From Lingula anatina (Eukaryota > Animalia > Brachiopoda): a stretch of 64,000 nt of DNA. The position numbers and the translations under genes were made by a program. The stretch is from assembly GCA_051362555.1 (NCBI GenBank), contig CM120649.1:4154001-4218000 (forward strand), written 5' to 3'. Every line of letters starts with the position of its first letter. Within the stretch, counting starts at the first letter, position 1. The notes below the pieces were generated by a model. It made no database searches. It was given only the letters and a program-made list of their open reading frames with translations, and was not told where the DNA came from. Shown piece by piece: positions 35,711 through 64,000 of this stretch.

Positions 35711-37317
35711 TTAAATATCACGCATCAGAATTATGTCCATCAGCTTTGCTGGAAGCCCCAAATTCTGTTGTAGTTTTTTGGCACCACATATCACATTGCC
35801 TGCATGGCTTTGCAGACCAAGTCTTAGCGACCTTCGGGCACAGTCCGACAAACTTGGCATGCAACTGTATTGACCAATCAAATCCTTTATAACAGAATCT
35901 GAACTTGGGTCATCGCCAGGGCGCCTTCCGTCGCCAACAGCCTCCACTCCCTCGTCAAACTGCTGGCTGACGGACGGTCTACAACCAGCCGCCAGTAGCA
36001 AAGCCATCAATTCCAAAAGATCCTTATTGGAGTTGTTCTGCTTCAGAACCCGATACAGCACCCAAAACAGATTGTCTTCTGGACATACTGCGTCCGCCTC
36101 TATCAACATCCTTGTGATCTTCAGATAGGTGGCAAACTTCTGACTGGTAATATTTGCAACTCGCAGCATGGCGGACTCCAGCGGAATGGGGTACCTTTGC
36201 ATTATATCTTCAATTTGAATTTTGGTTCTGGTGTTTACTTTTGCCCCTCTATTAAGCAGTATCTCTACAAGTTCAACGTGGCCTTTTTGTGTGGCAAGAA
36301 GTAATGGTGAGACATGACTTTTAGTTTGCAGGTCACAATCACATCCGCGTTCTATGAGCAGTTCAACAAGTCCACGATGGCGAGCAAGGACTGCCAAGTA
36401 AAGCGCTGTTCGACCTCTTCCATCCTGCCAGTCAATATTGGCTCCATGATCCAAGAGAAGCCCAACTAGGTATTCATTCCCATAGCTGGCAGCACTGTGC
36501 AAGGGGAGCCTACCCTGCAAATCAGGCACATTTACGCAGCATTTCTTCTTTATAAGCAACACTGCAGCCTCAACCTTATGATTAATAATAGCCTTATGAA
36601 GAGGTGTCCTTTTCCAAACATCCTGTAAATTTATGTCAATCTTACAACTCAACAAAGCTTCCACGGACTTCACTGTACCCTGGGCTGCAGCAAAGTGTAA
36701 AGGAGTCATCTGGCTGACATCTTGGGTGTTGGGGTTGGCGCCATTTTCGATGAGGAGTTGCACACATTCCCACCACCCCTTCTCAGCGGCCAAATGTAAA
36801 GCCGTCGAACCATATTTGTCCACCTATTTTACAACAAATGCAGGGATGTAACACAAAGAAAATATAATCTTCATTGTTGGAAGTATAACATTGCTATTGG
36901 TTAGCAATTTTTGGCTGGTATGTTTTAGAACTGTAGAATATTAAGGTTTCATCTTATTTGCATAACACACTGAGAGGAATGTGAAGCACAAATTAAAACA
37001 ATTTCATTGTCTAAATGCATACCCTGCACCTCACATTGTTATTATCATCATTTATAATTATTACTTTTGTTATTATTATTATAATCATTAAGAATTCCAG
37101 TAAAAAGTTACATAACTATTATCCCATACATAGACCTCTAACTAGACATGGACTCTGGCAGTCATATAACATGTACCTTCTGATTAATGTCCAGTAGTGG
37201 ATTGAGGAGGGTGTTCCTGACCGTAGGCAGATGACCGGTGGACACTGCATGGTACATGATATTGGCCAGACTGGCCTTCATCAGCTTCTGCTGGTGCCTG
37301 CTCCGAGTATTGCCCAT
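35711..37317 (-). CDS. Ankyrin-repeat and SOCS-box protein (ASB-like E3 substrate receptor); coding exons 37317-37177 and 36823-35711, 417 aa
   Basis: Six clear ankyrin repeats (GSTALHLAA, QMTPLHFAA, KRTPLHKAI, GRLPLHSAA, GRTALYLAV, HVSPLLLAT). C-terminal SOCS box (PSLSDCARRSLR...LGLPAKLMDII). The upstream exon MGNTRSRHQQ...LLDINQK splices in phase 0 (AAG|GTACAT ... AATAG|GTG), so the ORF-track start at 36823 is an internal Val. Confidence 0.9.
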
Positions 37318-37729
37318 CCTTGTCAACCAGGGTCTGGAATTATGAATTGAAAAAAAATCTTAAAACAGAAACTACTTTTTTTCAGTCTAATTCTGGACTA
37401 ATTGCTGTGGTCAGGCCTTGTAAACGGATCTTTTAGCATTTTAATCATATTAAAATATGATTAGGTTTATTTGGGTGCAAAGCTGAGGACTGTGGAAGTA
37501 TTTATTCACACGTACTTGAATGAAGTCAAAAGTAAAAGATGTGTTGGCATTCATTAGGTGTGTGTGAAAGTTATCTTCCAGAGTTTCTCTGAGTCAATGG
37601 AAAGTAAAAGAGATAAACATGACAATTTATAGCAATTTGTAATAAACATCTGAATTAAATTGAATAAAGCAACCTTTTTGATTTAGAACTGAGACTTCAG
37701 TTCTGTTGTTAATGAGACCGGCATCGCTT

Positions 37730-37902
37730 GCTGATATTAACACCCATATTAACCACATAACCCACAAATTAACCAGCACTACCAGAGTGGATCATGAATG
37801 TTAGTGCTAGGTATCGCTTTGTTGGTGCTAAATAGTTTAATGGTGTGTTGGTTAATTCATGGGTTTTGTGATTAATATGGGCGTCAGTGCTAAAATATCT
37901 GC
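37730..37902. mobile_element. Degenerate hairpin (MITE-like)
   Basis: CACCCATATTAACCACATAACCCACAAATTAACCAGCAC pairs imperfectly with GTGTTGGTTAATTCATGGGTTTTGTGATTAATATGGGCG. Confidence 0.55.
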
Positions 37903-39878
37903 AGATAGTGTTAGTACACGCCTAATCCGTTTATAAAGCCTGGTGATGGTCAGTTTTCCGTCCCTCATGCCCCCTCTCCTGGATCCTGATATTCTATAGC
38001 TACTACTACCATAGAGATCCAATGTTGATTGCATTTTTTATGCTTGAATAAGGTACAATTAAGCTTAATATATGTCTAATTCTAAATTCCTTCTGATAAC
38101 TGTTTAACCAGTGAGAGATCTGCTAAAATCAAACAAAAAATTCTTATAACAGTGTATGTTTAATCAAAAATGTATAAATGTCAAATTATTTTTTCTTAAG
38201 TAAGAATTTATAGATATTTACCTGTAACATTCTATTCTTTACTCCTTCACAGTGCTTTATTACAGCAGGCAGTACAGAATCAAGGCTTGCTTCATTATAA
38301 AAACTTCAGGCAGCACTCGGTGGCAGAGATTTTCCATATATATCATAGTTCACACCAGTTTCTCTTATGCAGCTGAAATTATAAAATATCAACATGTTAT
38401 CAATGATGTGTTGTTTAATGGTCAGGTAAACTCCAGAGAGATTTTATGGGATTTGGAGGAGAGCAGACTCAGAATTAATAGCAGGTAATAGAGGTGTGGC
38501 AACCTATAAAAGACAACAGAAGTTATCAATGGATATTTTTCTGATTGTTTTTTTCTTTAACTTAAAAGTTTTGTAGATTCAACAGTTCAAGCTCATCATG
38601 TTTTGTACACATATATGCACACACATGCATACATGCACACACACACACATATCCTATTCTCAAAGGAACTCAGTCAATATCAGAATATACAATGACAACT
38701 CAGGAGCCAAGGCAGTTTTTACTTTGCGTCAAATATGCTGGTTTAACACTTGTTTGATGTTGCCATTATCAAAAATGTTAGAGGCTGAATTTATCAAACA
38801 AAACAAATGATCTGACATGCACAAAACATTCTTTGCAGATGAAATGATCAAACAACTCAAATTTGTTGTCACAAAAAAGAAAAAAGGCTCCAAATTCAAT
38901 ACCCTGTGTCTCACATTTGCCATTGGCACTGGTTGCCATATATATATATATTCAAATTTATCCTATCCAAGATTTTCCCACTAATTTGTGTTTTTCCTTG
39001 AAAATTTTTTCTCTTGCTCCTGAATCATTAATATGCCAGATCCTGCACTTGGATTCAATGTATTATACCAATTTAAAGCGATAATAACTCTTCGTTTCAG
39101 CCAAAAAATGAATTTTCCTGGAGTAAACAACAATTTTCCCATACTTACCAATGATTAATGAATCCATTTTTACATTCAAAGTTAGTCCCTGGTTTTTTTC
39201 TAAAAAGTTTGGTTTTTTGTTAAAATCTCTTAAGAGATTTTAACAGAGTATAGCCATCAATGGAGGTCACGTGGTCTTAAGACAAGCTCAGATATCAGAA
39301 TAATAGCTATAACTGCCTTTTTTGTGGTAAAACAGAATATATTATATTTCTATGAGTTATTCACAATGTTTTTATTGTGAAATATAGATCTCATACAAAG
39401 AGTTATTATCCCTTTAATTAATGATTAAATATTTAAGCTCTAAATGGCAGGCCATCCACTTAGTCAATTTAAATTTCCACCCTACATGCCTGTTATAAAT
39501 GTTATAAATGTGCCTGGTTTAAAAATTTAGCTAGCAGCCATGTGGAAATCAGGGTAAATTCTTCTCTGTACACCAGGTCCCAAATATGGGATTTCCTACA
39601 GAGGGCGCTGTTCCAAGACAGAAAAAAAAAGAAACTACAGTAATAGCTCAATACATTTGAACAACCACAATGAATAATTAACCTTCTCTACACAAAATTC
39701 ACTTTCTTTTTCATACTTAATTTAATGATTTATAAGTTCTTTAAAGTTGAGTAATTCATGTCAGTAAATTTTTGGGTGTCTAAAAATGAAAAATCTTGGT
39801 GAAGTATACCTGCAAAAAAATCACAAAAAGTGATGCATTGGAAAATTTATAAAGATTACCACATGGAAATAATTGCTT

Positions 39879-39912
39879 TATAAGTGAACCTGGTGACAAA
39901 TTTTCATCAGTC
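39879..39912 (+). promoter_or_regulatory. TATA box and initiator of the cysteine-rich peptide gene
   Basis: TATAAG at 39879-39884; TCAGTC (TCAKTY Inr consensus) at 39907-39912 with its A at 39909, exactly 30 nt after the TATA start; ATG at 39955. Confidence 0.75.
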
Positions 39913-39954
39913 TGAGAAGTCAAATTGGAGAGGAGACACACGTACAGCAAAGTC

Positions 39955-41108
39955 ATGAAGATGATGAAGTTCTGTTTTGTTTTAGTATTTCTACTGTTTA
40001 CTATCCCCCAAGGTGAGCTTTCAGAGAAAACAACTCATTTAAAACCAAAATGATGTATATTCACCAATCTAGGTAGATTTACTTAAAATGTAGAATTTAA
40101 TTTTTAGGTTTTTTAATGCATTTTTTTTTTTTTTGTACAATTTTAAAAGACATGAACAGAAATGCAGAAGACTATTTAAAAGATCTTGAAAATGCAAATA
40201 TCAAGGGTGTGAAGCTCTATGGCTGTATTCCCAGAGCTTTTAGATCGATCTATCCCCGCGCAGAGTCTCACTAGATTACTGTCAGATAATCCGGTTTAAA
40301 TGTCCGTCCCGCCTACTACAAGCTGTAAGGGGGTAATTAACTTTCGTGTCCGCTCGGCTGACAGCTATTTAGCGTGAACCCCCAGGGAGTTAGGTCGATC
40401 TAAAGTAGATCTATCTATTCTCTGGAAATGGGGTCTATGTTGGGGGGGGGGGGGGCAGGGGTGGACATAGGGTAGAAAAAATCTATACCCAAATATCCAA
40501 ATTTTAAGATAATCTGCAAGACTCTCATCTCTAGTAGGGGGCGGGGATTCAGGTTTTGAGCCATTCACCCTTTCAACTTGGAAAAAAGTCAACTCTGGGT
40601 AAAATGTGAACTAGTTACACAAAGATTTCATGGTAAAAAGGTCCACTTTTTCAGAAAAAGAACCCCTCCTTTGAAATTGCTGGCTATGGGCCTGATATTT
40701 TTTCATAACAAGCAAGTTTGGTTTGCAATTTAAAATTTATATTCAGCTGACACCAAAGTACTTACATATTTGTACTAGGACCACCTTAACTATATATTCA
40801 TTACTGGTAAGTCAATAGTGATTTACTCAGTATTTTGTGGGTTTTCCACAAGCATATTCTGCTGCAATCTTTACGAAAATTTTGGCTAAAAAATACATGC
40901 ACTATTATCTATTTTAAAGCACATTGAATAAAAATAATGTTTTCCACTCATCTCTTCTTTAGAAGCCCTGTCACAGACTAATCTCTGCCAAAAAGATGCA
41001 GATTGTGTTGCCAATAACTACTGTCGTGGCTGCCTGCCCACAGTGAACCCAACTTGTGTCTTAGAGACCAAAGGACGGTGCACTTGTCCCTATTGTGGTC
41101 CATACTAG
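39955..41108 (+). CDS. Small secreted 8-cysteine peptide precursor (defensin/toxin/protease-inhibitor-like); coding exons 39955-40012 and 40963-41108, 67 aa
   Basis: Phase-1 splice CAAG|GTGAG ... TCTCTTCTTTAG|AA gives MKMMKFCFVLVFLLFTIPQEALS-QTNLCQKDADCVANNYCRGCLPTVNPTCVLETKGRCTCPYCGPY*: a signal peptide plus a 44-aa mature region with 8 Cys. Donor CAG|GTAAGT lies 5 nt after the stop; a 3'UTR exon starts at 43816 with AATAAA at 43934. Confidence 0.88.
40221..40435 (+). mobile_element. MITE family A copy in intron 1 of the peptide gene
   Basis: GGCTGTATTCCCAGAG ... CTCTGGAAATGGGGTC ends with the family core between them. Confidence 0.85.
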
Positions 41109-41188
41109 AGCAGGTAAGTTTTTAATTTTAGTATTCATTTAGTATTCATTTTCTTTCGATGCTTTAAAATCACTCAATCTGTTATGAC

Positions 41189-43596
41189 AACAAGGCAGCA
41201 AAGCTGTCAAATGTACAGACAAAAAACAGAAAATAAATATGTAAAAAATAGGTCATTTTGTCAATTTTGATGCAATAATAAAAAATGCTGTCAATCAACA
41301 TTCTATCAAAAAAGAAAAAAAAAACAGTATAACTTTTGTGAAAATGGTCTGTTCAAGCTGATTTTCTGACTTGACCTGCGTATTATGAATATTCATCAGT
41401 TCCCAAAGTTTCAAGCCAAAAAGTAAAACGGTTTTCCACTTATTGTGTTCTCAGTGTTGCATATATGGTGAAAAAGTGAAAAAACAAGTAATTTTTTTAA
41501 AAATGGCCAGATCATGCTGATTTTCGAACTTGACCTGCATATTATGAATATTTATCAGTTCTGTGAGTTTCAAACCAAAAGGTAAAATGGTATTCCACTT
41601 ACCTTTTTATCGGTGCTGCATATATGCTGGAAAAAGTGGAAAAAACGCATAAATTCTCTAAAAATGACCCAATCATGCTGATTTTCAAACTTGACTTGCT
41701 TATTATAAATATTTATCAGTTCTGTAAGTTGAAAGCTAAGGTACAATGGTTTTTCCACCTATCGTGTTATTGGTGCTGCATATATGCTGAAAAAATTGAA
41801 ATAAAAACAGCATAAATTCCCTAAAAGTGACCCGATCATGCTGATTTTTGAACTTGACCTGCGTATTAAGAATTTTCATCAGTTCTGTAAGTTTCAAGCC
41901 AAAAGGTAAAATGGTTTTCCACTTATTGTGTTATCGGTGCTGCATATATGTAGACAAGGCAGCAAAGCTGTCAAATGTACAGACAAAGAACAGAAAATAA
42001 AGATGCAAATAAGTGAAAAATTAAATTTTCACAAAAAACTGTTAAATTGCCAGAAAAATTTACCAAACAGACTGCGTTGCTTATTGAAGCTGTATGTTAG
42101 ACCCATGTTTCTTTCCTGTAAGTTTGAGAACAGTAAGTGACATGATTTCCCTTAAATGGTCATCATAGGAGCAGTGCCCAAAATAGGGGTTTCTTCAAAT
42201 TTTGATGCAACATTACATAATGTTTAACAGCATAATGACAATCAAATGTTATTAATAAAATATTAGTTAAAAAAAAAAAAAAAAAAAAAAAAACAGACTG
42301 CATTGCCTACTGAAGCTGTATTTTAGTCCCATGTTTCTATCCTGTAAGTTTGAAAACAGTAAGTGACATGATTTTCCTTAAATGGTCATCATGGAAGCAG
42401 TGCCCAAAATGGGGGTTTCTTCAAATTTTGATGCAATATTACATAATGTTTAACAGCTTAATGACCATCAATTTTTAATTATAAAATATTTGTATCACAG
42501 ATATTCAGAAAATGTGACTAGCAAAGGTCTTCAGGCCCATGGAACTTCAAAGTCACGCCTTGATATATGTCCAACTAAGAAAATTGATGAGATGGGAAAA
42601 GTATCAATAGAACAGTGTTAAATGTCCAATTTCCTCCATTCTGAGATTCTGAACATAGTGGATGATTGAATCTGACAAACTGCAATGATATGAGTTTATT
42701 TCCATTTTTGACACTTTATTACACAATACATGATAACAAGTTTACCATGTTTTTTACATAATCAACTAACAATGTTGTAAAGATGCAGGAAATATCAAAC
42801 AAACACTTTTAGGCATCTTATTAGTTAAATAATGAGACTTTTAACATGCCTAATAATTGAATCTGAGGAAATGTGAAAAAACAGTATAACTTCTTAAGTA
42901 ATGGCCCGATTATGCTTATTTTCGAACTCAACCTGCGTTTAAGTAAGACTGACCACTCCTGTGAGTATAATTACAATTGGCCAATCTGTTTTTCTTATAT
43001 TGTGTTATCAGTGTTGCATTTATATTGAAAATAGTGAAAAAACAGCATAAATTACCTAAAAGTGACCCGATCATGCTGATTTTCGAACTTGACCTGCGTA
43101 TTATGAATATTCATCAGTTCTGTAAGTTTCAAGTCAAAAGGTAAAATGGTTTTCCACTTACTGTGTTATCGGTGCTGCATATATGCTGAAAAAGTGAAAA
43201 AACAGCATAAATTCCCTAAAAATGGCCCAATCATGCCGATTTTCGAACTTGACCTGCATATTATGAATATTCATCAAGTTCTGTAAGTTTCAAGTCAAAA
43301 GGTACAATGGTTTTCCACTTATCGTGTTATCGGTGCTGCATATATGTTGAAAAAAGTGAAAAAACAGCATAAATTCCCTAAGAGTGACCCGATCATGCTG
43401 ATTTTCGAACTTGACCTGCGTATTATGAATATTCATCAGTTCTGCAAGTTTCAAATCAAAAGGCAAAATGGTTTTCCACTTATCGTGTTATCGGTAAAAG
43501 TGCACGGCGACGGCGACGATGGCAACGACGGCGACGGCGACGACAGACGCAGATGATGGCTATATGTACAGGCACATCTGTGTCTGTACATAAAAA
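41189..43596 (-). mobile_element. Helentron/HINE-like composite element with about 160-bp tandem repeats
   Basis: Terminal block AACAAGGCAGCAAAGCTGTCAAATGTACAGAC at 41189, again near 41953, and inverted at about 5290-5318. Repeat units about 160 bp apart (43041, 43201, 43363). (GACGGC)n microsatellite at about 43505-43545. Stem-loop TATGTACAGGCACA-tc-TGTGTCTGTACATA at 43563-43592, then an A run. Confidence 0.72.
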
Positions 43597-43815
43597 TTAG
43601 GCAGCAAAGCTTGCAAAAGTAAAGACAGTACATATTACCAAAGCATTTATTCTGCAATGATCCATCAAAATTGACAGCAAAGCTTGCAAATGTACAGAGA
43701 GCACATAACACCTCTGCATTTATTCTTCAATGATCCGTCCAAAGGACACATCATCTCTTTGTTTACAAATGTCCCATATTTCATACATAATATCAATCTT
43801 TTTTCTCAATTTCAG

Positions 43816-43955
43816 ATAAAACCTGTGCAACATATGAATTCCAACAGCAAGAGATGCTTTACTTTTTAACGTGGACTTCTTTGCTCTGAAAGCAAATTTA
43901 GAAATTATTGTTGAATAACTTGGAAGTTAACCCAATAAAATATCTATAAACAACA
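43816..43955 (+). other. Non-coding terminal exon and polyA signal of the peptide gene
   Basis: Strong acceptor CTTTTTTCTCAATTTCAG ending at 43815; AATAAA at 43934-43939; T-rich tract downstream. Confidence 0.6.
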
Positions 43956-44084
43956 CATATTTTTTTTTTATCAGGAGTGCCATGCAACCTCTTTATTTAT
44001 TAAAAGCAAAGTAATAATAATAAAATTAACAATAATAATAATAATAATCAGGATTTATTGTACCACTTAAAATCTATACAAAAG

Positions 44085-44205
44085 AGAGGCAGAGAGAGAG
44101 ACCATTACAGGATTAAGCAGTCTTCCTTTCATGTAGGATCCACCATATAATTATTTGATCCTTGAACCAGTTGATACTTGGGTCTTCTATTCTAAATGGC
44201 TCCTA
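44085..44205. mobile_element. Diverged partial copy of MITE family B
   Basis: GAGACCATTACAGGATTAAGCAGTCTTCCTTTCATG matches 46753-46788. Confidence 0.6.
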
Positions 44206-44926
44206 AGAGACTTGCATTACATAATTTAGATGTGCTATACTCAGCACCTTGGTGTGAAATGGCTTCCGCTGACAAATACAAATGTAAGTCTGGCAAGGAA
44301 CACATATATTTATTACATATATTTATTACACATATTTGTTACATATAATCCCACAGGGTTAGATACATTACTGGCACAATAAATTTTAATTACTTCTAGC
44401 GGACACTGTAGTCAGAGTGCAGAAAAATATCCATTGCGAGCAATATACCTTTCCAGTTACTGCAACATTTCTGATTCTTAGAGTGGGATCAGCTTCCAAA
44501 CATAGACTCAATCAGTTCATTTCAGTGCGGTGAGTGTGCTAGAGGCGACTTATCATATTTTAATTTGTTTAACAATTGCATTGTTTGTCTCAGTATTCAG
44601 CCTCACTATGCAGGTAAGGTCTGATCCCACACACCCTGTGTTTTTGTCAAGATGTGGATATTTATAGCCAAGAGAGTTTGAAACACAGGGTGGAATGAGC
44701 CAGAAAGTACCTACAGGCCCATAGCCTGCAATTTCAAATAAGGGGTTCTTTTCTGAAACAGTGGACCTTTTACCATAAAACCTTCATGTGCCCAGATCAA
44801 ATATTACCCAGAGGGGACATTTTCCAGAGCTCTTTTTGAAACTAAACATAGCAGTTAATTTTCTGTGTTTTTAATTTGATTTATTTTATTTCATGTACCG
44901 GTAATTTTGTACATGTACCTCTTGCA

Positions 44927-45690
44927 CACGCTCGGCTGTCACCTTGATTGGATAGTAAACGGTTGTCGTAAAATCGCTAAATGATATTAAAACCCGGTGC
45001 ATAAACTTGAAACCACCAAGGACAACCTTGGACTGCCACATTAATCCAATACAATGCAAAAATAAACTAGAACAAGTGGTTAAAGCCTTCAAACCGAATG
45101 TCGTAAAGTCCCCATATACCTCCATAGAGACAATAAATTAGAGTCAGCTTGTGAAACAAAACTCAACCAACTTAAACATAATAATCGAAATAAAATACTG
45201 CCGGGCATCGGAGCGGCCTAAAACTTGGCACGCTTACCGCAAATACTGCAGGCTACATCATCCCGTCACTCGTTTGTAAATTCCGTGCATGGCATACGCA
45301 CAATCAAACCGTAAAGCCAAATTCCACCTCTGATGTTTATTTTGGTCCACTCTAACCTCCAATTAAGAAAAAGAAGCCATGCCATTGGACAATACGACCT
45401 CTGCGGTTACGTCACTTCCTGATTTGAATAGTGTAGAGGACCAAAGTTGGTTGAGTTTTGTTTCACAAGCTGACTCTATTTTATTGTCTCTATGGAGGTA
45501 TATGGGGAGTTTACAACATTCGGTTTGAAGGCTTTAACCACTTGTTCTAGTTTATTTTTGCATTGTATTGGATTAATGTGGCAGTCCAAGGTTGTCCTTG
45601 GTGGTTTCAAGTTTATGCACCGGGTTTTAATATCATTTAGCGATTTTACGACAACCGTTTACTATCCAATCAAGGTGACAGCCGAGCGTG
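44927..45690. mobile_element. Young non-autonomous DNA transposon with 247-bp TIRs and an 8-bp TSD (hAT/P-like)
   Basis: Arms 44927-45173 and 45444-45690 are nearly perfect inverted copies starting CACGCTCGGCTGTCACC; CTCTTGCA is duplicated at 44919-44926 and 45691-45698; 270-bp spacer. Confidence 0.92.
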
Positions 45691-46250
45691 CTCTTGCAGC
45701 TAAAGTAACTTGAGATTAACTTTTGAACCTTACACTTAATGCGTATTGCTTTGCATTTCACATCAAATCCCATAGTTCTTACCTTTTTTTTCCCAATACT
45801 AGTACATGTTCAACGGCTATGCCGCTTTCATTTTGGTAAAGATATCTGACAGATGAAAATTTGTCACTTTCAAAATTATGCTCTGTTTACAATTCCATTT
45901 CCGATGCTGGTGATAGAAAGTACCTAGCCACGATAATGTCGTTATATAGGACAGGTGCCTTTTTCTAGCACTGACCAGTACATGATACATAAAAAACTTT
46001 AAATGATATCAATGTTATATTATCAACGGAAAATGATATTTTGGAGAATACCTGTCGCTTATAGCATTTGATTTTCTTGAACGGCATACTGTCAGTGGAT
46101 ACGTTACTTCACAACTGCGCAAACTCAGCGGAAGTCAGCTGGGCACGTTTTGTAAGGGACCTTTTGTAAGTGGCTTGTCGTAGATTTGCCACAACTGAAG
46201 TGTTTTTTCTTTTCGATAACTCCAGAACCGCTCAGAAGCGTTTTCACACA

Positions 46251-49200
46251 ATGACGATCTTCAGACTTGCCGGGCCTTTTGGGCGGAGGGCATTTTTAAG
46301 TCAACTAAAGGCACGGAAGGTGAGTACGAATCGGCTGCTTAGCTGCTTATGGCTCCGTAACCCGAAAGCATAGCGAATTTCGAATAGCGATATCACCTTT
46401 TATTTCGAGGCTACTATATGGGGCGAGTAAATCCTGAGTTACGGAAAAGAGGCGCTTGCGCTCGGTGGCAATTCGCGATGGTTTTGAGTTACGGAGCCTA
46501 GGTTCCACGCTTGGGAAGTCGTCTTAGAGGCCATTAAGAATGAGAAAAGCCGAGTGCTAGCTTGGACACGACCGAAATATGGCGGACTGACTTCTGCTGA
46601 GTTTGTGCAGTTGTCACCCCTTAATCCTGTAATGGGTTCCCCGCCTCTCACACGCTTCCTCACGCATCACCCCTGCAGGGGCACAGTAATTAAATCTCGT
46701 GTCAATTCAAGTGGTTGAGGCACGAAGCGTGGGGATCTGTGTGAGAGGCGGAGAGACCATTACAGGATAAAGCGGTCTTCCTTTCATGAAGGTCCACCAT
46801 ATTTAGGTCGTGGCCAAGCTAGCACTCAGCTCTTCTTATTCTGAATGGCCTCTTAAGCGGTAGATGAAGCTACAAACTATATTAAATGGCTCTTGTGATG
46901 CTAGACTAGACTACAAGATTTCTGCATTTAAGTAGTAATGAATGCTTTTGTCATTTGATGTGTCTTGTAAGATGATATGATGTTTCCATCTTTAATTGTT
47001 TCAGATCCGTGTGGCTTCCTATGCAAAAGCTGCTGGCAGTGATGAACTGGTAAGTATAAGTAAATGATAACATGCTTTGAGTGTATTCATTTTTATTTGG
47101 TATTACATATAAATTGGTTTGGACAAGACTTGTGTTGTACAAGACCTTAAATGATCTATATTTCTTAATTGTGTATTATATGTACATTGTGTGCCTGTGT
47201 GTGTGGAAAGGGGGTGAGCATCCTTCACTTTCTGAAATTATTATAAATGAGATACCAGTTGAAATGAGGAATTTCAAAAGTTTGTTGTTTTACAGAAGTC
47301 ACAGGAAGTCAAGCTGCTTCGAAACATAGGGGTCTCTGCACATATCGACTCTGGCAAGACAACACTGACTGAAAGGATATTATTCTACACAGGAAGAGTG
47401 GAGGAAATGCACGAGGTAATGCAGTCTATCTGAAAGATGATTCGTAAGGGGCCTTTTAGGCTCTGTTCTCACAACTTTTAGATCGATCTATCACCGCGGG
47501 GAGTCTCACTAGATTACTGTCAGATAATCCCCCTTAAGTGTCCGTCCCCGCCTACTACAAGCTTTAAGGGGTAATTAACTTTCGTGTCTGCCCGGCTGAC
47601 AGCTATTTAGCGTGAACCCCCAGGGAGTTAGGTCGATCCAATGTAGGTCGATCTAATCTATGAGAATGGGGTGTTAAACAGCTACTGATCTAAGTCTATG
47701 AAAATAATGGGACAATGTCCTCATGTAAAAAGAAAAGATGAATTTTGGTAAAATAGATGCATACATTAGTACTCGCAAGGAAAAAGAAAATAAATAAAGG
47801 GCTGAATAAGATTAGAAAGAGAATATATATGCAATCTGGCATGATAGTTTTAGGAGTTGTTATTTGCTTTGGTCACTTTTCTCAGGGGGATTTGCCATCC
47901 TCAGTTGCTCTATATCTAGACGCACAAAGCAGTAAATGCCAAAATTTTTTAACAATATTTCTTTTTAGTTCATTTATATGTTTATTGGTTTTAAAATAAG
48001 TATGAACTTTGAGTTCAGGTGTGACATTTTTAATAATAATGAATAATTCTTCACCATTTGTAAGCATACATAATTTTCATTTCAGGAGATATTTTAAGTT
48101 GTACTGCCAACTAAACATTTTATGGATTTATGACTCTTTATGAATAGGAAAATAGATTGGTAAATAGATTATTCCTACTGCCATTATTATCCTTGTATAG
48201 GTTAAAGGAAAAGATAAAGTTGGTGCAACAATGGACTTCATGGAGCTAGAGAGACAAAGAGGCATCACTATCCAGTCTGCTGCTACTTATACACACTGGA
48301 AAGGACATAATATTAATATTATTGATACTCCAGGTACTTTCTCTCCTTCTCCCTCTCTCTCTCTCTCTCCCTCCCTCCCTTAACAACTCTCATTAAAGAG
48401 ATAGTTATGATTAGGTATTTATTTTCAATTAGAATAATACACTTAAGGAATTTTGTATTAACCCCACTGTATGATAGGTATATTACAGGCCACAAACTTA
48501 AAGTTAGCATTATAACAATGTAGCTCTTTCATATTAGTCACAATGTCGGTATATTACAGGTCATATAGACTTTACAGTAGAAGTGGAGCGTGCTCTCCGC
48601 GTCCTAGATGGCGCCATATTAGTCGTCTGTGCTGTGGGCGGAGTCCAGTGTCAGACGATGACAGTGGACAGACAGATGAGGCGTTACAAGGTTCCGTGTG
48701 TGACTTTTTTGAACAAAATGGATCGATTGGGGGCGGATCACTACAGTGCTTTAACACAAATGAGGTACTGTTTTACTTGATTTTTCTTTTTTTTTTTTTT
48801 CTTTTTTTTTTTTCTTTTTCCTTTTTTTTTTTCAGAAAATGTTGTTAAAGTTTTTTTTTCATTTGCCCCTCAATTTGGTTTTAATTTTCAGACCCAGTTG
48901 GTCTACTTCTGTTCGAGGTGCTTTTATAGTAGTCCACTTATAAAAATTTAAAGTTGGTATTGGTTAAAAACATCACTTTCTTGTTATGAACACCGTTGCA
49001 GTGTTTCATTTACTGGATGTAACACTTCAAATTGGTTCAAAATTTAATTTTTTGTCAACAAAATGTCCTGGCTAATTTTTAGGCTAAAGTCTTAATGTGA
49101 AATGAGTCTTTATTTAAAACATATTGGCGAAGTATTATTTTTATTTTTTTATTTTATTTTTATTATGTCTTCTTTTTCTTCAATCTTCAGAAAACGGCTG

Positions 49201-52200
49201 GAGCATAACTGTGCATTTGTCACGTTACCAGTAGGCAGAGAGTCCCAACACAGTGGGGTCATTGACCTCATAGAGGAGAAAATGTTGACTTTTAATGAGC
49301 CATTTGGGTAGGTGGTGATTAGGCCCTCTTTACACTAGACGGCCTCCTTTCTGCTTCCTGCAGTATGACCCCCTGTTTGAGAATTAAAAAAGCAATACTT
49401 TATGTGCCGCCAACTGGCCAGTCATTGAGCATTTACTGTGCATCCAAAGCGGTGCTTTTGCCTCTCTTCTATGACCAAAGCAATGCCAGAAAGTACGCTG
49501 TCCAGTGTAAAGGGGATTTAGAGAAAGATATCATTCTTTTTTTCTTGCTTTCAAACTTACAAGAAGAAGGGTTTTTTCTTGTCATTTGATGTAATTTTTG
49601 GTAAAGGGTAAAAACTTGAAAATTTTGTCACTTGAAAATTAGTTAATATTTTTAAATGCATGAATCTGACACGACCATATTGAGTGATAAAGAGGCCCAT
49701 TTTAAGGATTGACAAAATTTTCAAAGTGAAAAAAAGTATCAGCAGTGAATCTGCTTCCAACAAAATTTTCAAGACTGTACTGAGGTGATTTCTTTGTCTA
49801 CTAAAACCAGGTCATCTTTATATTTTCTAAAGTATTTTTATTGTATTGGAGTGCTATCCAGTAAGCAGTTTTTTTTTTTCACTCATACTTTTATGTGATT
49901 CTAATGTGATGGCTGACATTCCATATAAACTTATTACAGTACAAATGTAGTGGCGGATGCCATCCCAGCAGACATGTTGGCTGAAGTAAAGGAAAGGAGG
50001 CAAGAGCTGATAGAGTGCGTGGCCAACGCAGACGATCATTTAGGGGAGATCTTTTTGGAGGAGAGGACACCTACCATTCTGGAAATAAAGGTAACCAGGA
50101 AACTTCCGAAAGAAGCATGTTCATATGTGTTGAATGAATGAATAAATGTGTGACTGGGATAAAATTTTTGAGTTGATGGACACTATGAATAGAAGGAAGC
50201 TTGGAGAGGTAAGCTGAGAAGTTGCCCACACACAGACGGGTAAAAAGGTTGAGTTTAAATTAAATTATTATTAATTTAATTGAATTATTTTGATGGATTG
50301 ACTGATGGTCTAAAGTACAGTTCATCAACTTGATTTTTTTTTTAATTTTGAGAGTGGTACAGGTGTAATTATGTATTTAACAATTTGATTGTTTGTTGAT
50401 GGATTTGTTGGACAAAAGTTTTATTGTTTACCTCTATTTTCTTCAAGTTTGGTTACTGAGAACTTGAGAAGGGTTGGTTGGTTGATCCAAGTGCTTTATA
50501 GACCAGCAGGGGCGGATCCAGAGCTATTTACTGACAGTCTTCCAAATTATCTTTGTTGGTCCATCCTCCAATTTTGACCGTCTTCCAACAGAAAAAATTA
50601 GATACCCGTCAAATGTTTACTTGAAAATCTGACCGTCATCTGGAAGACCCAAAAGACGGCCTAAATCTGCCCCTGACCAAAGTACAATTGATCAACTTGA
50701 TTTTTTCAAACTCAGTGAGTAAAAAGGGAATACAGAAACAGATGTAGAACAATTTTAAGTACGGTCCTCTTCCATTCAGGCGGCCATAAGAAGAGCGGTG
50801 ATAAGTCAACAGTTTAATCCGGTCTTCTGTGGATCAGCACTGAAAAATAAAGGCGTCCAACCTCTTCTGGACGGGGTGGTTGATTACTTGCCAAATCCTA
50901 CAGAAGTTGAAAACTTTGGGATGGTGGAAAACAAAGACCCTTCTGGGAAAAAGTAAGTAGCATATTGAGGTCCAAAGTGAAATTTTGTTATCAGGTTTTG
51001 AAAGCATTAATAACATTGAATTTTATTGAAATTGAATTTTAATACTTTGCAAGTTTATGAGAAAAAAAATTAGTCCACATTGACTCGAGAATCAAGAAAG
51101 ACTAGTAGTCCCACAAGTGAAATACTTTGTGCCCATTTCACAACTAGAAAGACATTGGCAATGTTTCATACCAACACATTATTTATTCATTATTGGACTT
51201 TAATAATTGTACCACCAGCGTTAGCGCTGGCGGTACACATGGTTTCGGTCCCGTCCGGATCGTTCCGCCGGCTCCGCCGGCTCCGTTGGCTCCGCCGGCT
51301 CCGCCGGACGGCTACCGTTACCGCTTCTCCTCCTAGACGGTAAGGGCCCCCGTACCCATCTCATGGATTTAGGTCACCTATAATCTCAACTCGTTCCACG
51401 TAAAATTTGGGCTTTGTCGGTATTGGGGTCTGGGTGTGGCACTCATTGCAATGCACCCTTGTCTAAAAATAGCAAAATTAAATGCTAATTATCTACCCTA
51501 CGGAAGGAGTTATGGGAAAAATTTCTATAGACGGCTTTCCAAAAGTCATATGTGTAGATTTCAAATGTACCCTTGGATTTGACCTTTGACCTTTACTTCA
51601 AGGTCAAATGGGCCAAAATTTTCAAAAAAATGAAATTTTTTACGAAAAAAATTTTTTTTGCCCTGTTATTCAGACACCACACAGACTTAACCAATAATAT
51701 TATTGGAAAGTGTTACCCTTCAGGTCATCTTTCATCTCCATGAATTTGGGGTCAATCGGTGCATTTTCACGGGAGTAGCGGCCATAAGATACCGAAACTG
51801 AAAACTGTCTCTAATTCGGGAACCGTTAATGCTAGAGACCCATTCTTTTTTGCATTTTGTAGAGCATGTAAAGCCCAACACTGGAGGTGGTCTCGGTTTT
51901 TTTGTATTCCATACGGTTTTCGAGTTACGCTGTATCAAAAAGTACATATTGGTGGTAAAAGCAAAATGTGCAGTACGGTAATGGATAATAAATTTTGAAC
52001 TCGGGAAAAATAAAACATAAGGCTTGGCAAAGCAGACAACTTGTGTTCAAAAATGACATTATTTCATCAAATTTGAACTTCTGAAACTTCAGAGCACATC
52101 CTATTTCAAGAATTTTGACCAAAATGACATTTTCTTTATTTTAATTAATTTTTTCTGTACGAAATTTAAGGCACATTATGGTAACTCCAAAATTATAACA

Positions 52201-55200
52201 TCTAGTCCCTTATATCTCCAAAACTGGCAGAGATAGGTCCATAGTTACTATTGAAGTTGAATAGGAAGTCATATACTGGCAATCTTACTATGACCTTGAA
52301 ATTGACCTTTGACCTACTTTTCACCATGAACTGAACTTTGCAAATTTTTCTTCCCTTTTATCTCCAAAACTGGCAGAGATAGGTCCATAGTTACTATTGA
52401 ACTTGAATAGGAAGTCATATACTGGCAATCTAAATGTGACCTTAAAATTGACCTTTGACCTACTTTACACCATGAACTGAATTTTGCAAATTTTGCTTTC
52501 CTTTTATCTCCAAAACTGGCAGAGGTAGGTCTGTAGTTACTATTGAACTTGAATAAGAAGTCATATACTGGCAATCTATATGTGACATTAAAATTGACCT
52601 TTGACCTACTTTTCACCATGAACTGAATTTTGCAAATTTTGCAAATTTTGCTTTCCTTTTATCTCCAAAACTGGCAGAGATAGGTCCGTAGTTACTATTG
52701 AACTTGAATAGGAAGTCATATACTGGCAATCTAAATGTGACCTTAAAATTGACCTTTGACCTACTTTTCACCATGAACTGAACTTTGCAAATTTTTCTTC
52801 CCTTTTATCTCCAAAACTGGCAGAGATAGGTCCATAGTTACTATTGAACTTGAATAGGAAGTCATATACTGGCAATCTAAATGTGACCTTGAAATTGACC
52901 TTTGACCTACTTTTCACCATGAACTGAAATTTGCAAATTTTCTTCCCTTTTATCTCCTAAACTGGCAGAGATAGGTCCATAGTTACTATTGAAGTTGAAT
53001 AGGAAGTCATATACTGGCAATCTAAATGTGACCTTAAAATTGACCTTTGACCTACTTTACACCATGAACTGAATTTTGCAAATTTTGTTTTCCTTTTATC
53101 TCCAAAACTGGCTGAGATAGGTCCGTAGTTACTATTGAACTTGAATAGGAAGTCATATACTGGCAATCTAAATGTGACCTTAAAATTGACCTTTGACCTA
53201 CTTTTCACCATAAACCGAACTTTGCAAAATTTGCTTCCCTTTTATCTCCAAAACTGGCAGAGATAGGTCCATAGTTACTATTGAACTTGAATAGGAAGTC
53301 ATATACTGGCAATCTAAATGTGACCTTTAAATTGACCTTTGACCTACTTTTCACCATGAACTGAACTTTGCAAACTTTTCTTCCCTTTTATCTCCAAAAC
53401 TGGCAGAGATAGGTCCATAGTTACTATTGAACTTGAAAAGGAAGTCATATACTGGCAATCTAAATGTGACCTTAAAATTGACCTTTGACCTACTTTACAC
53501 CATGAACTGAACTTTGCAAATTTTGCTTCCCTTTTATCTCCAAAACTGGCTGAGATAGGTCCATAGTTACTATTGAACTTGAATAGGAAGTCATATACTG
53601 GCAAACTAAATGTAACCTTAAAATTGACCTTTGACCTACTTTACACCATGAACTGAATTTTGCAAATTTTGCTTCCCTTTTATCTCCAAAACTGGCAGAG
53701 ATAGGTCCATAGTTACTATTGAACTTGAATAGAAAGTCATATACTGGCAATCTAAATGTGACCTTAAAATTGACCTTTGACCTACTTTACACCATGAACT
53801 GAATTTTGCAAATTTTGCTTCCCTTTTATCTCCAAAACTGGCTGAGATAGGTCCATAGTTACTATTGAACTTGAAAAGGAAGTCATGTACTGGCAAACTA
53901 AATGTGACCTTAAAATTGACCTTTGACCTACTTTACACCATGAACTGAATTTTGCAAATTTTGCAAATTTTGCTTTCCTTTTATCTCCAAAACTGGCTGA
54001 GATAGGTCCGTAGTTACTATTGAACTTGAATAGGAAGTCATATACTGGCATTATAAATGTGCGTTAAAATTGACCTTTGTCCTACTTTTCACCATAAACT
54101 GAACTTTGCAAATTTTGCTTCCCTTTTATCTCCAAAACTGGCAGAGATAGGTCTGTAGTTACTATTGAACTTGAATAGAAAGTCATATACTGGCAATCTA
54201 AATGTGACCTTGAAATTGACCTTTGACCTACTTTTCACCATGAACTGAATTTTGCAAAATTTGCTTCCCTTTTATCTCCAAAACTGGCTGAGATAGGTCC
54301 ATAGTTACTATAAAAGTTGAATAGGAAGTCCTATACTGGCAATCTAAGTGTGACCTTGAAATTGACCTTTGACCTACTTTTTATCATGAACTGAACTCTG
54401 CTAATTTCTTTCTCTTTTAACTTCAAACTTGACAGAGATAGGTCCATAGTTACTCTTGAACTTGAATAGGAAGTCATATACTGGCAATTTACTGTGACCT
54501 TGAAATTGACCCTTGACCTACCTTACGAAGAACTTAAATTTGATTGTACCCTATATTTTTTTTGCAATAGTTTAAAAATTCTTGTTGATTGCATTTTTAC
54601 AGCTTGTCAAGCACAAAACTGGTGGCTTATTTTGTGTATGTGGGGGTCTATACGAATGCGCTTGCTCCAGCTGGTGGTACAATATTTGGAAGGGGTATCG
54701 CCTCTCTGATCCTCTAGTTATGGATTATGGATTTGTCAAATTTTGCTTTCCTTTTATCTCCAAAACTGGCTGAGATAGGTCCGTAGTTACTATTGAACTT
54801 GAATAGGAAGTCATATACTGGCATTATAAATGTGCGTTAAAATTGACCTTTGTCCTACTTTTCACCATAAACTGAACTTTGCAAATTTTGCTTCCCTTTT
54901 ATCTCCAAAACTGGCAGAGATAGGTCCATAGTTACTATTGAACTTGAATAGAAAGTCATATACTGGCAATCTAAATGTGACCTTGAAATTGACCTTTGAC
55001 CTACTTTTCACCATGAACTGAATTTTGCAAAATTTGCTTCCCTTTTATCTCCAAAACTGGCTGAGATAGGTCCATAGTTACTATAAAAGTTGAATAGGAA
55101 GTCCTATACTGGCAATCTAAGTGTGACCTTGAAATTGACCTTTGACCTACTTTTTATCATGAACTGAACTCTGCTAATTTCTTTCTCTTTTAACTTCAAA

Positions 55201-58200
55201 CTTGACAGAGATAGGTCCATAGTTACTCTTGAACTTGAATAGGAAGTCATATACTGGCAATTTACTGTGACCTTGAAATTGACCCTTGACCTACCTTACG
55301 AAGAACTTAAATTTGATTGTACCCTATATTTTTTTTGCAATAGTTTAAAAATTCTTGTTGATTGCATTTTTACAGCTTGTCAAGCACAAAACTGGTGGCT
55401 TATTTTGTGTATGTGGGGGTCTATACGAATGCGCTTGCTCCAGCTGGTGGTACAATATTTGGAGGCGGTATCGCCTCTCTGATCCTCTAGTTATGGATTA
55501 TGGATTTGTCTTTACTAGAAAATAGACTGAAGTCAGGGCTTGACACTAACTTTTTTCCGTACTGGCCCGAGATATTGGTAAATATTGCAAGGATGATTTG
55601 ACACATGACCTTTTACTTGCTCTTTGGGCCAGTGACCACATCGATTCAATGGCCCTAGGTTGGTTTTCATTGGCCCAGGGCCAGTGGGCCACCCTTAATG
55701 TCAAGTCCTGCAAAGAAGTAACAATTAACACCAATTTTCAGGCTAAAGTGATTTTGTGTAAATAGCACCAAGTTGAGACGGTTCCATCTGAAGAGAAACC
55801 GGACCATTTGTTCCTTAGAAAAAATTAGTTTTTCATCATCTCTTTTCTGTGGAGACTTGTTTGCTAACTGTGAAGCATGGTGCTTTGAGGTTTTTATTGT
55901 GCCCAGCTAACATAGGCCAGGGTGTTTTTACGGGAATTGCCCTCATATGGTGACAAGGTAGTCATTAAGACGGCTCTAGGAGGAAGATTTGAAATGTCAC
56001 ATCTCGTGGCAAAAAAAAAACAGTTACTCAGTTCTGAACTGATTGTGTACTTTTTTATTATGACTTTTTTTTTTTTCAGGACCACAGTGGAGAAAGTAAA
56101 GCTGGATCCTACCAGGACCCAAAAAAATCCTCTCTTGGCGCTGGCATTTAAATTGGAGGTGAGCAGACTTCAGCTTTTTCCACGGAAATGTGGAATTTTG
56201 CATTCTTTAATTCAATGCTGATTGTTCCTGAGATTCATCAAGATCTGCAATTAAATCTAGTTTCGAGTTTTTTTTTTAACCAAGGCTCATGACTGGGTGA
56301 GACAGCATGCAGAAATTAGTATAAGCTCCTCTTGAGTTGGTTAGGGACATCATTTGCGTTGAGTGTTGGTGCAATTCGCAAGCTACCATGTTGCCATGCA
56401 GTAAATACTACATCGATCTCCTCTAATTCTTGATAGAGTTGACAACCAGTGAACTGCGTGGTTAAAATGTTGCAGTGATGTGTATTCATGTTGAAGAGTG
56501 TCAGAAGTTTGTTCATATGTTAACCAGTTACAGTTACGAAACTCAAATTTAGTCCCATTGTTTTTACCCAATACTATGGACGTTCACATATATATATATA
56601 TAAAGCATAGAAACAGTTTGAATAGCGTGTCCCCACAGACAGAGAAAATGTCAATGAAATATTGAGAGAACAGTTTCATTAGCTCTGTATGTATAAATTC
56701 AAATTATGGTTTTTCTTTTTATCAAGAGCTTGTAAAATATGTGGGTATTACCTCCAATATTTCTGTGACTGTCAGTCACCATCATCAGGGTGAAATGACT
56801 AGGGTCATTTACTCCCTGATGATGGTGACTGACAGTCACAGAAAATGACCCTAGTCATTTACTCCCTGATGATGGTGACTGACAGTCACAGAAATATTGG
56901 AGGTAATACCCACATATTTTACAAGCTCTTGATAAAAAGAAAAACAATAATTTCAATGAAATATTGTTTTCTATTATTGTTTGGATCCAATTTAAAGATC
57001 TCTAATTTAACAACAAGCACATGATTTGATACTTAAGCAAAGATGTCGTAGAATTTTGGTCAGCTGACTGTCATGTGTTGACTGGATGGCATGCCACGCC
57101 TCATAGGTAGAAACCATGTGAAATTTTGCAGCCTCTAATGAAACTTTTTTTTCACAATTTTTTTACAATTCTGAATTTTTTTTTTTTTGTTCCAGGCTGG
57201 TAAGTTTGGGCAGCTGACCTACATGAGAGTCTATCAAGGATGTATCGCAAAAGGAAGTACGCTCTTAAACACGAGAACTGGGAAGAAAATCCGTGTGGCC
57301 CGACTGGTGCGAGTCCACTGCGACACAATGGAGGTTAGTTTTTTTTATGATAATTAATTCCTCATACAACAACTAAGATAAGTATTTCAGTGTTTAACAG
57401 GACACCTTCATCAGGGAAAGAGGTTACAGGTGTTACAATATCCTTTTTATAGTTTCCTTTTTATACATTGAAAGGATGTTTTGGCTTTTTAAGCAGCAGG
57501 GCTAAACAGGTCTGTAGGTTTAAAGTTTTGCAAACCGAGGCTGTTTCTATCACAATTTCTGTGAGGTTTGGTATAATAGCCACTTATAGATTTTTCATGT
57601 CTGCTCTAGGGCATGTTCCCAGTGATACTTGTTCCCATGTAGATTGGTCCAACTCTGCTTGGGACACTCCTGAAATGCAATCAGATGAACTGAATGACGC
57701 CCCTCCAGGAGCTGCAAGGGGGCGATTAATTTTCACGTGCATTTGCACTCCAAACTGCCAGAAGCTGAGCAGACACACAAGTTTATCGTCCCTTAGGGAC
57801 CATTCCCACAGATATTTGGATCAATCTAACTCCCTGGGGAGTCTCACTATATTGCTGTCAATTTGGCTGGCTTAAATGTCTGTCACGCCTAGTAAAGCTG
57901 TTAGGGGGTAATTATCTTTACCCTAGCTGATTCGGTAGGCGTGACAGACATTTAAGCCGGTTAGTTGATAACAATTTAGTGAGACTCCCCAGGGAGTTAG
58001 ATCGATACAGATAGATCGATCTATGTATGGGAACCCAGTCTTACTCCTGGAGGCGTGTCATTCAGTTAATGTGATCATATTCAGCGCAAGCCCCTCCCCG
58101 GGAAAAATCGATATATGTAGAACAATATTTTTATTGGAAACACACCCCTTAATTTTTTTAAAATTCTTTTTGGTGTGATTTCAGACATTAACAGAGGCAT

Positions 58201-61200
58201 ACGCTGGAGATATCTGTGCTTTGTTTGGCGTGGAATGTGCCAGTGGTGACAGCTTCGTAGACTCTGCCAAATTTGCTAATATGTCCATGGTAAGTGACAA
58301 TGATCTTTGACAACATCATAATTTGTAGACACCTACCTTTGCAAATATGTCCATGGTAAATGATGATGATATTTGACAATGTCAAGGAAATAAGTTATTT
58401 ATATACCTGTGATAGGTAACGGTAATTGTAGATACTACCAAATTTGCAACAGTGCCTACGGTTATTGACAATGATCTTTGACAACACCATGTTTTGTTGA
58501 CACAAACGCCTTTAAGTTAGTTATATACCTGTTTTAAGTGACAGTGATTGTAGACAACACCATTTTAATTTGTGGATAGAAAGTGACAAGGATCATAGAT
58601 GTACCAATGGGAATGAGAGAGTAAGATGACGCCCACGTGACAAAACAAAAGACGAACACGAGTGAAGAAAATACATTCATACGGCTACATTCACCCCCCT
58701 TCTCAAAGAAATGTCCTTCCTGATTACACTTAAAGCAAACAATTGGCTTTGCATTTCTGTTCCGTGACTCACTCATTTTTTCCTCCAAATCACTTACCCG
58801 ACGGCCGATTTTTTCCATGCCCGACACCAACAAATCTAATTTCCTATTTATTTCTAAGACAGAGAAATTTTCATCTTTGTCTTCATAAACACAATTTTTC
58901 CGTTGAGAAATGTCATTTGGATCAGAGTGCTCTAAATCTGATATGCGAGAAGCTAACATATCTACTTTTTTCATCAAGTCTACGGAAACATCAGACTGAG
59001 GCTTACCTTGGTATGAGGAAGTTTCACGGGAGCCTGAAAATTCTAATTCTGCCACACGTGCACTTACCATCAATTCCTGAAAAGTTTCTCCGGAATGGTA
59101 ATGATGCCTCAATGCATGCTTAACGTTGACTGAAAACAATCCAGAGAAAAATTTCGACCGTAAAATTCTATCACGTTTTTTTCCTTCCCTAACTTCTGGA
59201 TCTACTCTACTAATTGTATCCACTAAATTACTAAATTAATTGTTGATTTACTTCTGGTAAACCTGTGTTTAGGTCATGTAATATGAAGCAGTGTTGATTC
59301 AAAAGTAAATTGGCATCAATACAATGGCATCATGTCAGAACTTGCGTGGATATTTATTAGTATATGATACTGTTAATCAGTCAGGAGCTTTCCCGACTAC
59401 TGGCGGATCCCCAGCTTTTTGGGAGCCAAAAATATCACTCCTGAGTTTGATGCAGAGGGCCCCCTGGCCCCCACGCCATATGTTCAGACTTTTTGACTAA
59501 ACGGCCATCTCAATCCTGTGTTAATACAGTGTCTATTATTGGTTATTTTCTAGGAACCTATTCATGTGCCTGAGCCTGTGATAGCTATGTCAATCAAATG
59601 CGAAGACTCCAAAAAGGCAGACAATTTCTCGAAAGGAATAGCGCGTTTTACGCGGGAGGACCCTACCTTCAGAATGGAATACGATGAGGAACACAGGGAA
59701 AGCATTGTAATGGGGATGGGAGAGCTGCATTTGGATATATACTCTCAGGTTTGTATGGGTGCATGCATGCATATGTGTGTGTATGTTTTTTTTCTGTGTG
59801 TGTGTGTGTGTGTGTGTGTTTATGTGTGAGAGAGAGAGCAAGAGGGAGAGTGCATGCGCTTTTTTGCAAATCTGTTATCAATTACTGTGACGTAAGTGAC
59901 TATTTTACAAAACAAAACAAATTTAACTATAAATGTATTTTGTGCATGTGTATATTTATTTGTGGGAGAGAGAGAGCAAATTGTTTATCTTATTTAAAGG
60001 CTATTTGTGAACTAACATGTCCATGTAACTGTAGAATTTGGCATGTTTACATGGGCTTTTTTGTTGGTAGCAATGTCAAAAGTAAAATGATTGAATCCGG
60101 TGAAAAAGTCATATGTTTCTTAAAAGACCAAACATATTAAAAAACCTCAGAGGCATGATGTTTTTCAGTATTTTTCTACGACCATTTCAAAAGATAGAAA
60201 AGACATAGTAGAACTATTGTCATGGTGTGATTAAATTTGTGATTTCAGAGACTGGAAAAAGAGTATGGTGCTAAGGTGATATTGGGAAAACCACGAGTTG
60301 CTTTCAGAGAGACATTACAAGCACCATGCGAGTAAGCCTTTATTTAGTGTAGTGGAGAAGTAAAATGGGATAAAAATGATAGTATATGAAAATTTTAAAA
60401 AATAATAATAAAATAATAAATGATAGTTATCAAGTTAAAGGCAGCAGTTTTCTGACCATCAGTTAGGTTGTTTTAAACTTTTAAGCTTTTCAAGAAACTA
60501 TTTATCACAACTTGGTATTTATGGATTCGTATTGAATGTCTGACATTGTTATGCTTCAGTAGAACAGGTTTTTCAGTGTGTAAAGATGGTAAAAAGTAAA
60601 TTCTTTCTAAAAGTCAATATCTGTATATTTGTCATCTTAAGCTACCTTTTTACAAGTGTCCACCTTGAATTCCAGATCATGATAAGATCATTCTTAATAT
60701 TTTAAAGATTATTTATTTATTTATTATTATTTTGTCAATAAATTTAGTTTGTTTTTTTCTCTAGGTTTGACTATCTCCACAAACGTCAGAGTGGTGGACA
60801 GGGGCAGTATGGAAGAGTTATTGGAATTGTTGAAGTAAGTCCACCCACCTGCCAAAAATGTATTTTCCTTATAGCCAGAGACCTAGTTAACAATATTTTC
60901 AACCAAGCAGAAATTTTGAGATTAACCAATTTGGACAATGAGTTAAAAAATTGGTGAAGAAAAAGTTAATTGTTTCTATAGAAGTTATATGTTTTGACCC
61001 TTCATCAGAAAGTGTTGATCACATGACTGAGTTCTGGAAGAAACAGCTCACTTTCCCACTATCTTAATACAAAAGGCAACAAAATTGCATATGTGGAAAA
61101 GAAAAAAAATGCTTTTGCAAATCTCATATTATAAAAAATTACAGATATATGATGTTTAAATATATATTAAGAAGGCATTTCACCTTGAATTGTATTTGAA

Positions 61201-61385
61201 AGTAAAACAACCACAAATGTGACCTTGATTTTTTTTTTCAAGGCAAGACACTTTACAAAATATTAAGATCATTTTTTATTTCCATCTTTTAGCCTCTCCC
61301 TATAGAACAGAATACAGAGCTGGAATTTTACGACGAGTGCACAGGAACCAACGTGCCTAAAGGATACATGCCAGGCATTGAGAAG

Positions 61386-61420
<35 letters not shown>

Positions 61421-63923: not shown

Positions 63924-64000
63924 TGGCCCATAGCCAGGGATGGTTCAGGGGTTTCGAAAGAACCGCCTCTTATGCTGACAAAAGGTCCACTCTTGGTAAA
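63924..64000 (+). mobile_element. Start of a short repeat family also seen at about 40570-40695 and 44716-44825
   Basis: Shared GGCCCATAGCCAG / GGGGTT / AAAAGGTCCACT blocks. Confidence 0.45.

Follow-up and report, generated by a model that had tools for sequence, protein, structure and literature searches.

Gene structure and predicted product

The 64,000-nucleotide (nt) stretch of Lingula anatina DNA analysed here (assembly GCA_051362555.1, contig CM120649.1, forward-strand positions 4,154,001 to 4,218,000; hereafter the window, whose own numbering is used throughout) holds at 39879..43955, on its forward strand, the predicted gene of a small secreted peptide with eight cysteines. The gene had been proposed in an initial annotation, and what is confirmed is the anatomy of the predicted model: it is an intact-looking three-exon gene, and all of its features lie in the sequence at the coordinates assigned to them. 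Judged from its sequence features, the gene is probably genuine, with a secreted peptide of four disulfides as its probable product. These features are as follows.

39879..39884, forward strand: TATA-like box TATAAG
39907..39912, forward strand: initiator-like TCAGTC, with the predicted transcription start at 39909
39955..40012, forward strand: coding part of exon 1, 58 nt (19 codons and 1 nt), with most of the predicted 23-residue signal peptide
40013..40962, forward strand: intron 1, phase 1, 950 nt
40963..41113, forward strand: exon 2, 151 nt, with the end of the signal peptide, the predicted mature peptide (40974-41105), the stop codon TAG (41106-41108) and 5 nt of 3' untranslated region (UTR)
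41114..43815, forward strand: predicted intron 2 in the 3'UTR, 2,702 nt
43816..43955, forward strand: predicted non-coding terminal exon, with AATAAA at 43934

The initiator A lies 30 nt 3' of the start of TATAAG, and the ATG at 39955 is the first to follow TCAGTC, with no other in between. Exon 1 ends in phase 1 at the donor AAG/GTGAGC, and the acceptor of intron 1 is a TAG preceded by a tract of 88% pyrimidine; within this intron lie a dispersed repeat resembling a miniature inverted-repeat transposable element (MITE; about 40218-40434) and another short repeat (about 40590-40700). Exon 2 has a single open frame on the forward strand and a G+C content of 49%, as compared to 47-49% in neighbouring coding exons and 25-29% in its own flanks, and it ends at the donor CAG/GTAAGT 5 nt past the stop. 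The splice sites equal or surpass those of the neighbouring elongation factor G (EF-G) gene, and neither a frameshift nor a damaged splice site is present. Intron 2 consists mostly of tandem repeats of 159-161 nt and 226 nt, and the acceptor at 43816 is the sole one with at least 80% pyrimidines in 41150-45800. AATAAA is also found early in intron 2, at 41232 and 41277, and exon 3 is therefore less certain and a two-exon message possible. Under the established 50-nt rule of nonsense-mediated decay, a stop only 5 nt before the last junction means that the message would escape this pathway. An Rfam scan of 36000-47000 gave no match.

The precursor comprises 67 residues, divided by hydropathy and the -3/-1 rule into a predicted signal peptide of 23 residues (9-residue hydropathy 3.41) and a predicted mature peptide of 44. 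The latter contains eight cysteines separated by gaps of 5,5,2,7,7,1,2, none of them adjacent to another, and four basic and three acidic residues giving a net charge of +1 and an isoelectric point (pI) of 7.7. A gamma-core triad, defined as GXC or CXG in the accessible text of two sources (PMC5116183, PMC11395145), is present as G-R-C at C6 and not, as in MGD and Cg-Def defensins, before C5.

Authenticity and expression of the gene

Stop-free stretches with eight cysteines are common by chance, 374 of them being found in 2,020 simulated 64-kb windows, and a signal exon under a loose definition could be attached to 136 of them, with loose models occurring in about 7% of windows. Under stricter criteria none of 300 simulated windows produced a gene model. 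Furthermore, on a score of ten features the real locus reached 10 out of 10, which none of 1,644 simulated windows did, the 101 null models drawn from these including one that scored 9, one that scored 7 and none that scored 10. The ten features were picked after the locus had been seen, and the score is for this reason a guide; the promoter, the third exon and the polyadenylation signal lie outside it. We consider it very probable that the gene is real and either alive or very recently dead.

Four RNA runs from three studies, out of nine assigned by species label alone, were mapped on 39600-41230, using 9.5-12.4 million records each (6-26% of the run) and no positive-control gene. Reads over the locus fell on intronic repeats alone, except that two runs reached a depth of less than 3 at 40755-40919, and the coding exons were empty throughout, so that the gene is not borne out as complete in the sense of expressed. 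The empty runs speak weakly against broad constitutive expression and say little on a gene that is restricted to one tissue or induced. The MITE-like element of intron 1, which is internally palindromic and recurs in the window at 14780, 29164, 47456 and 57815, was seen in thousands of RNA reads originating from other copies.

Genomic setting

Microsatellites, MITE-like elements and tandem repeats abound in the window, which is animal DNA. The peptide gene is flanked on one side by an ankyrin-repeat gene on the reverse strand and on the other by the EF-G gene on the forward strand, which starts near 46250. The ankyrin-repeat gene (35711-38373, reverse strand) has six repeats and, by eye, a SOCS-box-like end, and its likely start MGxxxS is an N-terminus of the myristoylation type; the best full-length relative among the scored candidates is 35% identical. 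The multi-exon EF-G gene (46250-64000, forward strand), probably the mitochondrial one, carries in its introns a 146-nt satellite array (52206-55321) and a zinc-knuckle gag-like fragment (58534-59235, reverse strand). The region 46040-46500 at the EF-G gene start is CpG-rich (observed/expected 1.26) and has a minus-strand donor-like site near 46053, and it is possibly a head-to-head promoter; if it drives the ankyrin-repeat gene, the peptide gene would be nested antisense in an intron of the ankyrin 5'UTR. A young foldback element with 247-nt arms that are 99% complementary (44927-45690) separates the peptide gene from the EF-G promoter, and at the left end of the window there is a two-exon gene resembling rhodopsin-family peptide receptors (639-2661, reverse strand; 7tm_1, Srw).

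Searches for relatives

The initial annotation had suggested that the peptide may represent an undescribed four-disulfide family. Pfam, NCBIfam, the PDB, a word search and the ESM Atlas yielded no homologue. The word search covered 5.8 billion proteins at lengths of 25-83 residues and gave no candidate relative, and the best score in the ESM Atlas was 0.76 with no usable named match, which is evidence for neither absence nor novelty. Scans of metagenome and of viral contigs returned one locus each, both dismissed as chance matches of the last 10-21 residues to unrelated microbial open reading frames. The array 5,5,2,7,7,1,2 was likewise unreported in the literature searched, whose coverage lay outside most subscription papers and sequences given only in figures, and three short motifs of the peptide found no match there. 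The collections searched hold little small-peptide sequence from invertebrates, and the lack of relatives is therefore weak evidence of novelty. A second copy was sought within the window and none was found, and the proposed status as a family is so far not supported.

Interpretation of the peptide

The reading that we tentatively prefer is that the predicted secreted 44-residue four-disulfide peptide is a remodelled cysteine-stabilised alpha/beta (CS-alpha-beta) defence peptide of the mussel/oyster defensin type. Such a likeness to eight-cysteine mussel defensins, and to the I84 (cvSI) inhibitors treated below, had been noted initially and was recovered here in shared gaps, an RCTCxxCG tail, a split signal peptide and a C-T-C motif. 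The peptide has eight cysteines and a CxC followed by a C-terminal cysteine, as do eight-cysteine CS-alpha-beta defensins of the mollusc/nematode type. Arrays were compared with a table of 533 CS-alpha-beta rows (PMC5116183 supplement 1), and 5,5,2,7,7,1,2 equals none of them. The framework is less unusual than had been implied, being the MGD-1 array with two additional residues between C2 and C3 and with C4 placed four positions earlier: four of its gaps are identical to those of MGD-1 and MGD-2 (5,3,6,3,7,1,2; PMC5116183), the C3-C5 distance is 10 as in MGD-1, and the six-cysteine core left on omitting C4 and C8 reads 5,5,10,7,1 as against 5,3,10,7,1 in MGD-1. Among random eight-cysteine arrays 2.3% agree in four gaps with at least one of 22 references picked by hand from the table, and 1.8% end in CxCxxC.

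If the peptide is of this type, its precursor would enter the secretory route and the signal peptide would be cut after Ala-Leu-Ser, exposing a Gln that may cyclise to pyroglutamate; with four disulfides formed, the mass of the product would be about 4,792 Da. The disulfides would pair 1-5, 2-6, 3-7 and 4-8 around a lengthened or bulged helix, and the C-terminal Gly-Arg-Cys hairpin may be the working surface. At a net charge of +1, the peptide would more likely act in defence by binding a specific microbial target, as oyster defensins do with lipid II, than by lysing membranes through its charge. The lack of reads would be accounted for if expression were confined to a single tissue or needed induction.

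Several observations weigh against this proposal. The CxxxC helix motif is absent, as had been pointed out before, the corresponding gap being 5 in the MGD register or 2 in the drosomycin register, and in the 533-row table the gap of the helix pair is 3 in nearly every row, with a few of 4 or CxxCC and none of 5 (PMC5116183); a nematode row of 6,4,2,4,4,1,2 in the same source indicates that the helix pair can stretch to four. The peptide also lacks the GFGC N-terminus and the GxC before C5 that the accessible part of PMC5484132 describes for bivalve defensins. The spacing figure of about 2% is post hoc and confined to one superfamily. Read depth was zero in every bin of both coding exons in four of four RNA runs, mapped with no positive control. 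Furthermore, Pfam, NCBIfam and PDB sequences gave no defensin match at E-values up to 10. Single-sequence structure models are both poor and contradict each other: that of the 44-residue peptide (predicted local distance difference test, pLDDT, 58) has a helix at residues 8-14 over C2 and bridges near C5-C6, which would speak for the defensin-type scaffold, and that of a 41-residue version (pLDDT 61) lacks a helix and forms a beta-hairpin around C2-C3. Searches with either model by Foldseek, which the initial annotation had suggested, and by VIA-align gave nothing significant and no defensin. Because the defining CxxxC is absent, we do not count the peptide as a member of the CS-alpha-beta defensins.

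A bolder claim, and a somewhat unlikely one, is that the peptide is the founder of an undescribed family of four-disulfide miniproteins, either a CxxxC-free scaffold of defensin type that forms a link between bivalve defensins and I84 modules, or a fold of its own, with a gene that may escape annotation owing to the very small size of its two coding exons. Cysteine-rich peptides without known relatives are, however, no rarity among invertebrates. Should the pairing be defensin-like, the CxxxC by which the superfamily is defined and mined would tolerate stretching, and motif searches will miss members. Small disulfide-rich peptides are overlooked by gene finders in general, even though they are stable scaffolds from which antimicrobials, protease inhibitors and channel probes are often obtained, and the present one is short enough for synthesis.

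Alternative explanations

An unlikely alternative to a defensin-type peptide is a secreted inhibitor of proteases that goes back to a single module of I84 (cvSI) type, or to a similar module led by CxxDxDC, and that acquired an extra disulfide and stops before a second module. According to the accessible text of PMC9198434, an I84 gene is built of three exons, a phase-1 intron interrupts the part for its signal peptide, and exon 2 carries the first six cysteines; the module array is CX5-8 CX4-5 CX7-9 CX4 CTC, the twelve cysteines forming two modules on exons 2 and 3; and C-T-C is the most conserved element, with C-X5-C and C-X7-C-X4-CTC among the motifs. Like this family, of which cvSI-1/2 and scSI-1 to -14 are members, the peptide contains a C-X5-C with two Asp, a C-X7-C and a G-x-C-T-C, and its low charge fits a protein binder. 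Its signal peptide is likewise divided by a phase-1 first intron, a feature common to many secreted peptide genes, and the Foldseek rows included just one small disulfide peptide, the squash inhibitor MCoTI-V (E-value 9.9). However, it has eight cysteines in one module rather than twelve in two (6 + 6), and the stop lies in exon 2 with the third exon non-coding. Even though CTC itself is present, the best six-of-eight cysteine subset deviates by four residues from the array of the first module, and the pI of 7.7 lies above the 4.98-6.11 of I84. Read in phase 1, exon 3 has Cys as its fourth codon, but this is the single Cys in that frame, and the second intron would on read-through be phase 2 and not 1. 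In addition, the family is reported from molluscs only. As a separate observation, exon 3 is in phase 1 open for 23 codons (43816-43890) with this one early Cys, as a decayed second module might be.

It is likewise improbable that the peptide has an independent four-disulfide scaffold, for instance a disulfide-directed hairpin with C1-C3 pairing, that serves as a toxin, receptor ligand or signalling peptide and resembles defensins by convergence. No homologue in any collection searched and the hairpin that the 41-residue model predicts at C2-C3 are consistent with such a scaffold, and the segment CxxDxDC-x4-YC may resemble the hairpin modules of Dickkopf/colipase type. The eight isolated cysteines also correspond formally to conotoxin framework XXII, as given in the accessible part of PMC4494067. 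Against this, the MGD-like tail and the C3-C5-C6 distances would have to be coincidence (about 2%), and the gene encodes no propeptide and is single-copy in the window. Potassium-channel blockers carry a Lys immediately before C5, which is missing here, and the array of an inhibitor cystine knot is not present either. The initial annotation had also seen a likeness to knottins and WAP domains, and here it did not hold, as the peptide fits neither array: the inhibitor cystine knot pattern CX3-7 CX3-8 CX0-7 CX1-4 CX4-13 C, as given in the accessible text of PMC4942781, is missed by at least three residues in all 28 subsets. The WAP four-disulfide core has an adjacent CC pair, and the peptide has no such pair and no Pfam match to this core.

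That the gene is silent or died recently, or that its signals came together by chance, is quite improbable. The absence of exon reads from all four runs, the lack of a homologue and the loose models in about 7% of simulated windows would agree with this explanation, the more so as a genome scan tests many windows, but the ten features united at the locus recurred together in none of the 1,644 simulated windows, the G+C content is coding-like with a single open frame, and neither a frameshift nor a damaged splice site is seen.

Recruitment of a zinc-binding peptide from the C-terminal half of a RING finger by way of two CxxC pairs is highly improbable, since the TRIM34 and TRIM5 RING domains, although the only PDB sequence matches and aligned on CxxC...CPxC, scored weakly for a Cys-rich query (E-values 0.042-0.43, and 0.01-0.26 in a second search), since the RING histidine and first CxxC pair of the C3HC4 ligand set are missing and two additional cysteines lie inside, since RING fingers have no signal peptide and a secreted peptide would be oxidised, and since TCPYCGPY also matched unrelated microbial proteins by chance.

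Comparison with known systems

Scorpion potassium-channel toxins (HsTx1, Pi4, Pi7 and maurotoxin; 5,3,5,4,4,1,2) share with the peptide the initial gap of 5 and the final 1,2, but the four inner gaps differ, no sequence match is found and the peptide is not strongly basic. Conotoxins and teretoxins of framework XXII have eight cysteines of which none are adjacent, as far as the accessible part of PMC4494067 describes them, and in this the peptide agrees with them; the framework is however a pattern class only and the peptide is without a propeptide. In the register of drosomycin and plant defensins, which have a C1-C8 outer bond, the summed gap distance is 10, equal to that of MGD-1, with C3-X2-C4 replacing the helix pair. 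Here, however, CxxC stands in place of CxxxC, just two gaps are identical and a Gly lies within the would-be helix.

The likeness to bivalve defensins extends from the array to the sequence of the tail and the layout of the gene. The RCTCxxCG of the peptide also occurs in MGD-2, and RCTCxxC in Cg-Defh1/2 and in VpDef, the net charge of which is 0, all according to the accessible text of PMC5484132. The part of PMC3390580 at hand assigns the pairing 1-5, 2-6, 3-7, 4-8 and binding of lipid II to oyster defensins, and describes a Cg-Def precursor in which a 22-residue signal is directly followed by a 43-residue peptide with eight cysteines, to which the 23 + 44 residues predicted here are closely similar. 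The same source gives Cg-defh genes three exons and places their second intron where the mature peptide ends, and the present gene shares this three-exon layout, with its second intron 5 nt past the stop.

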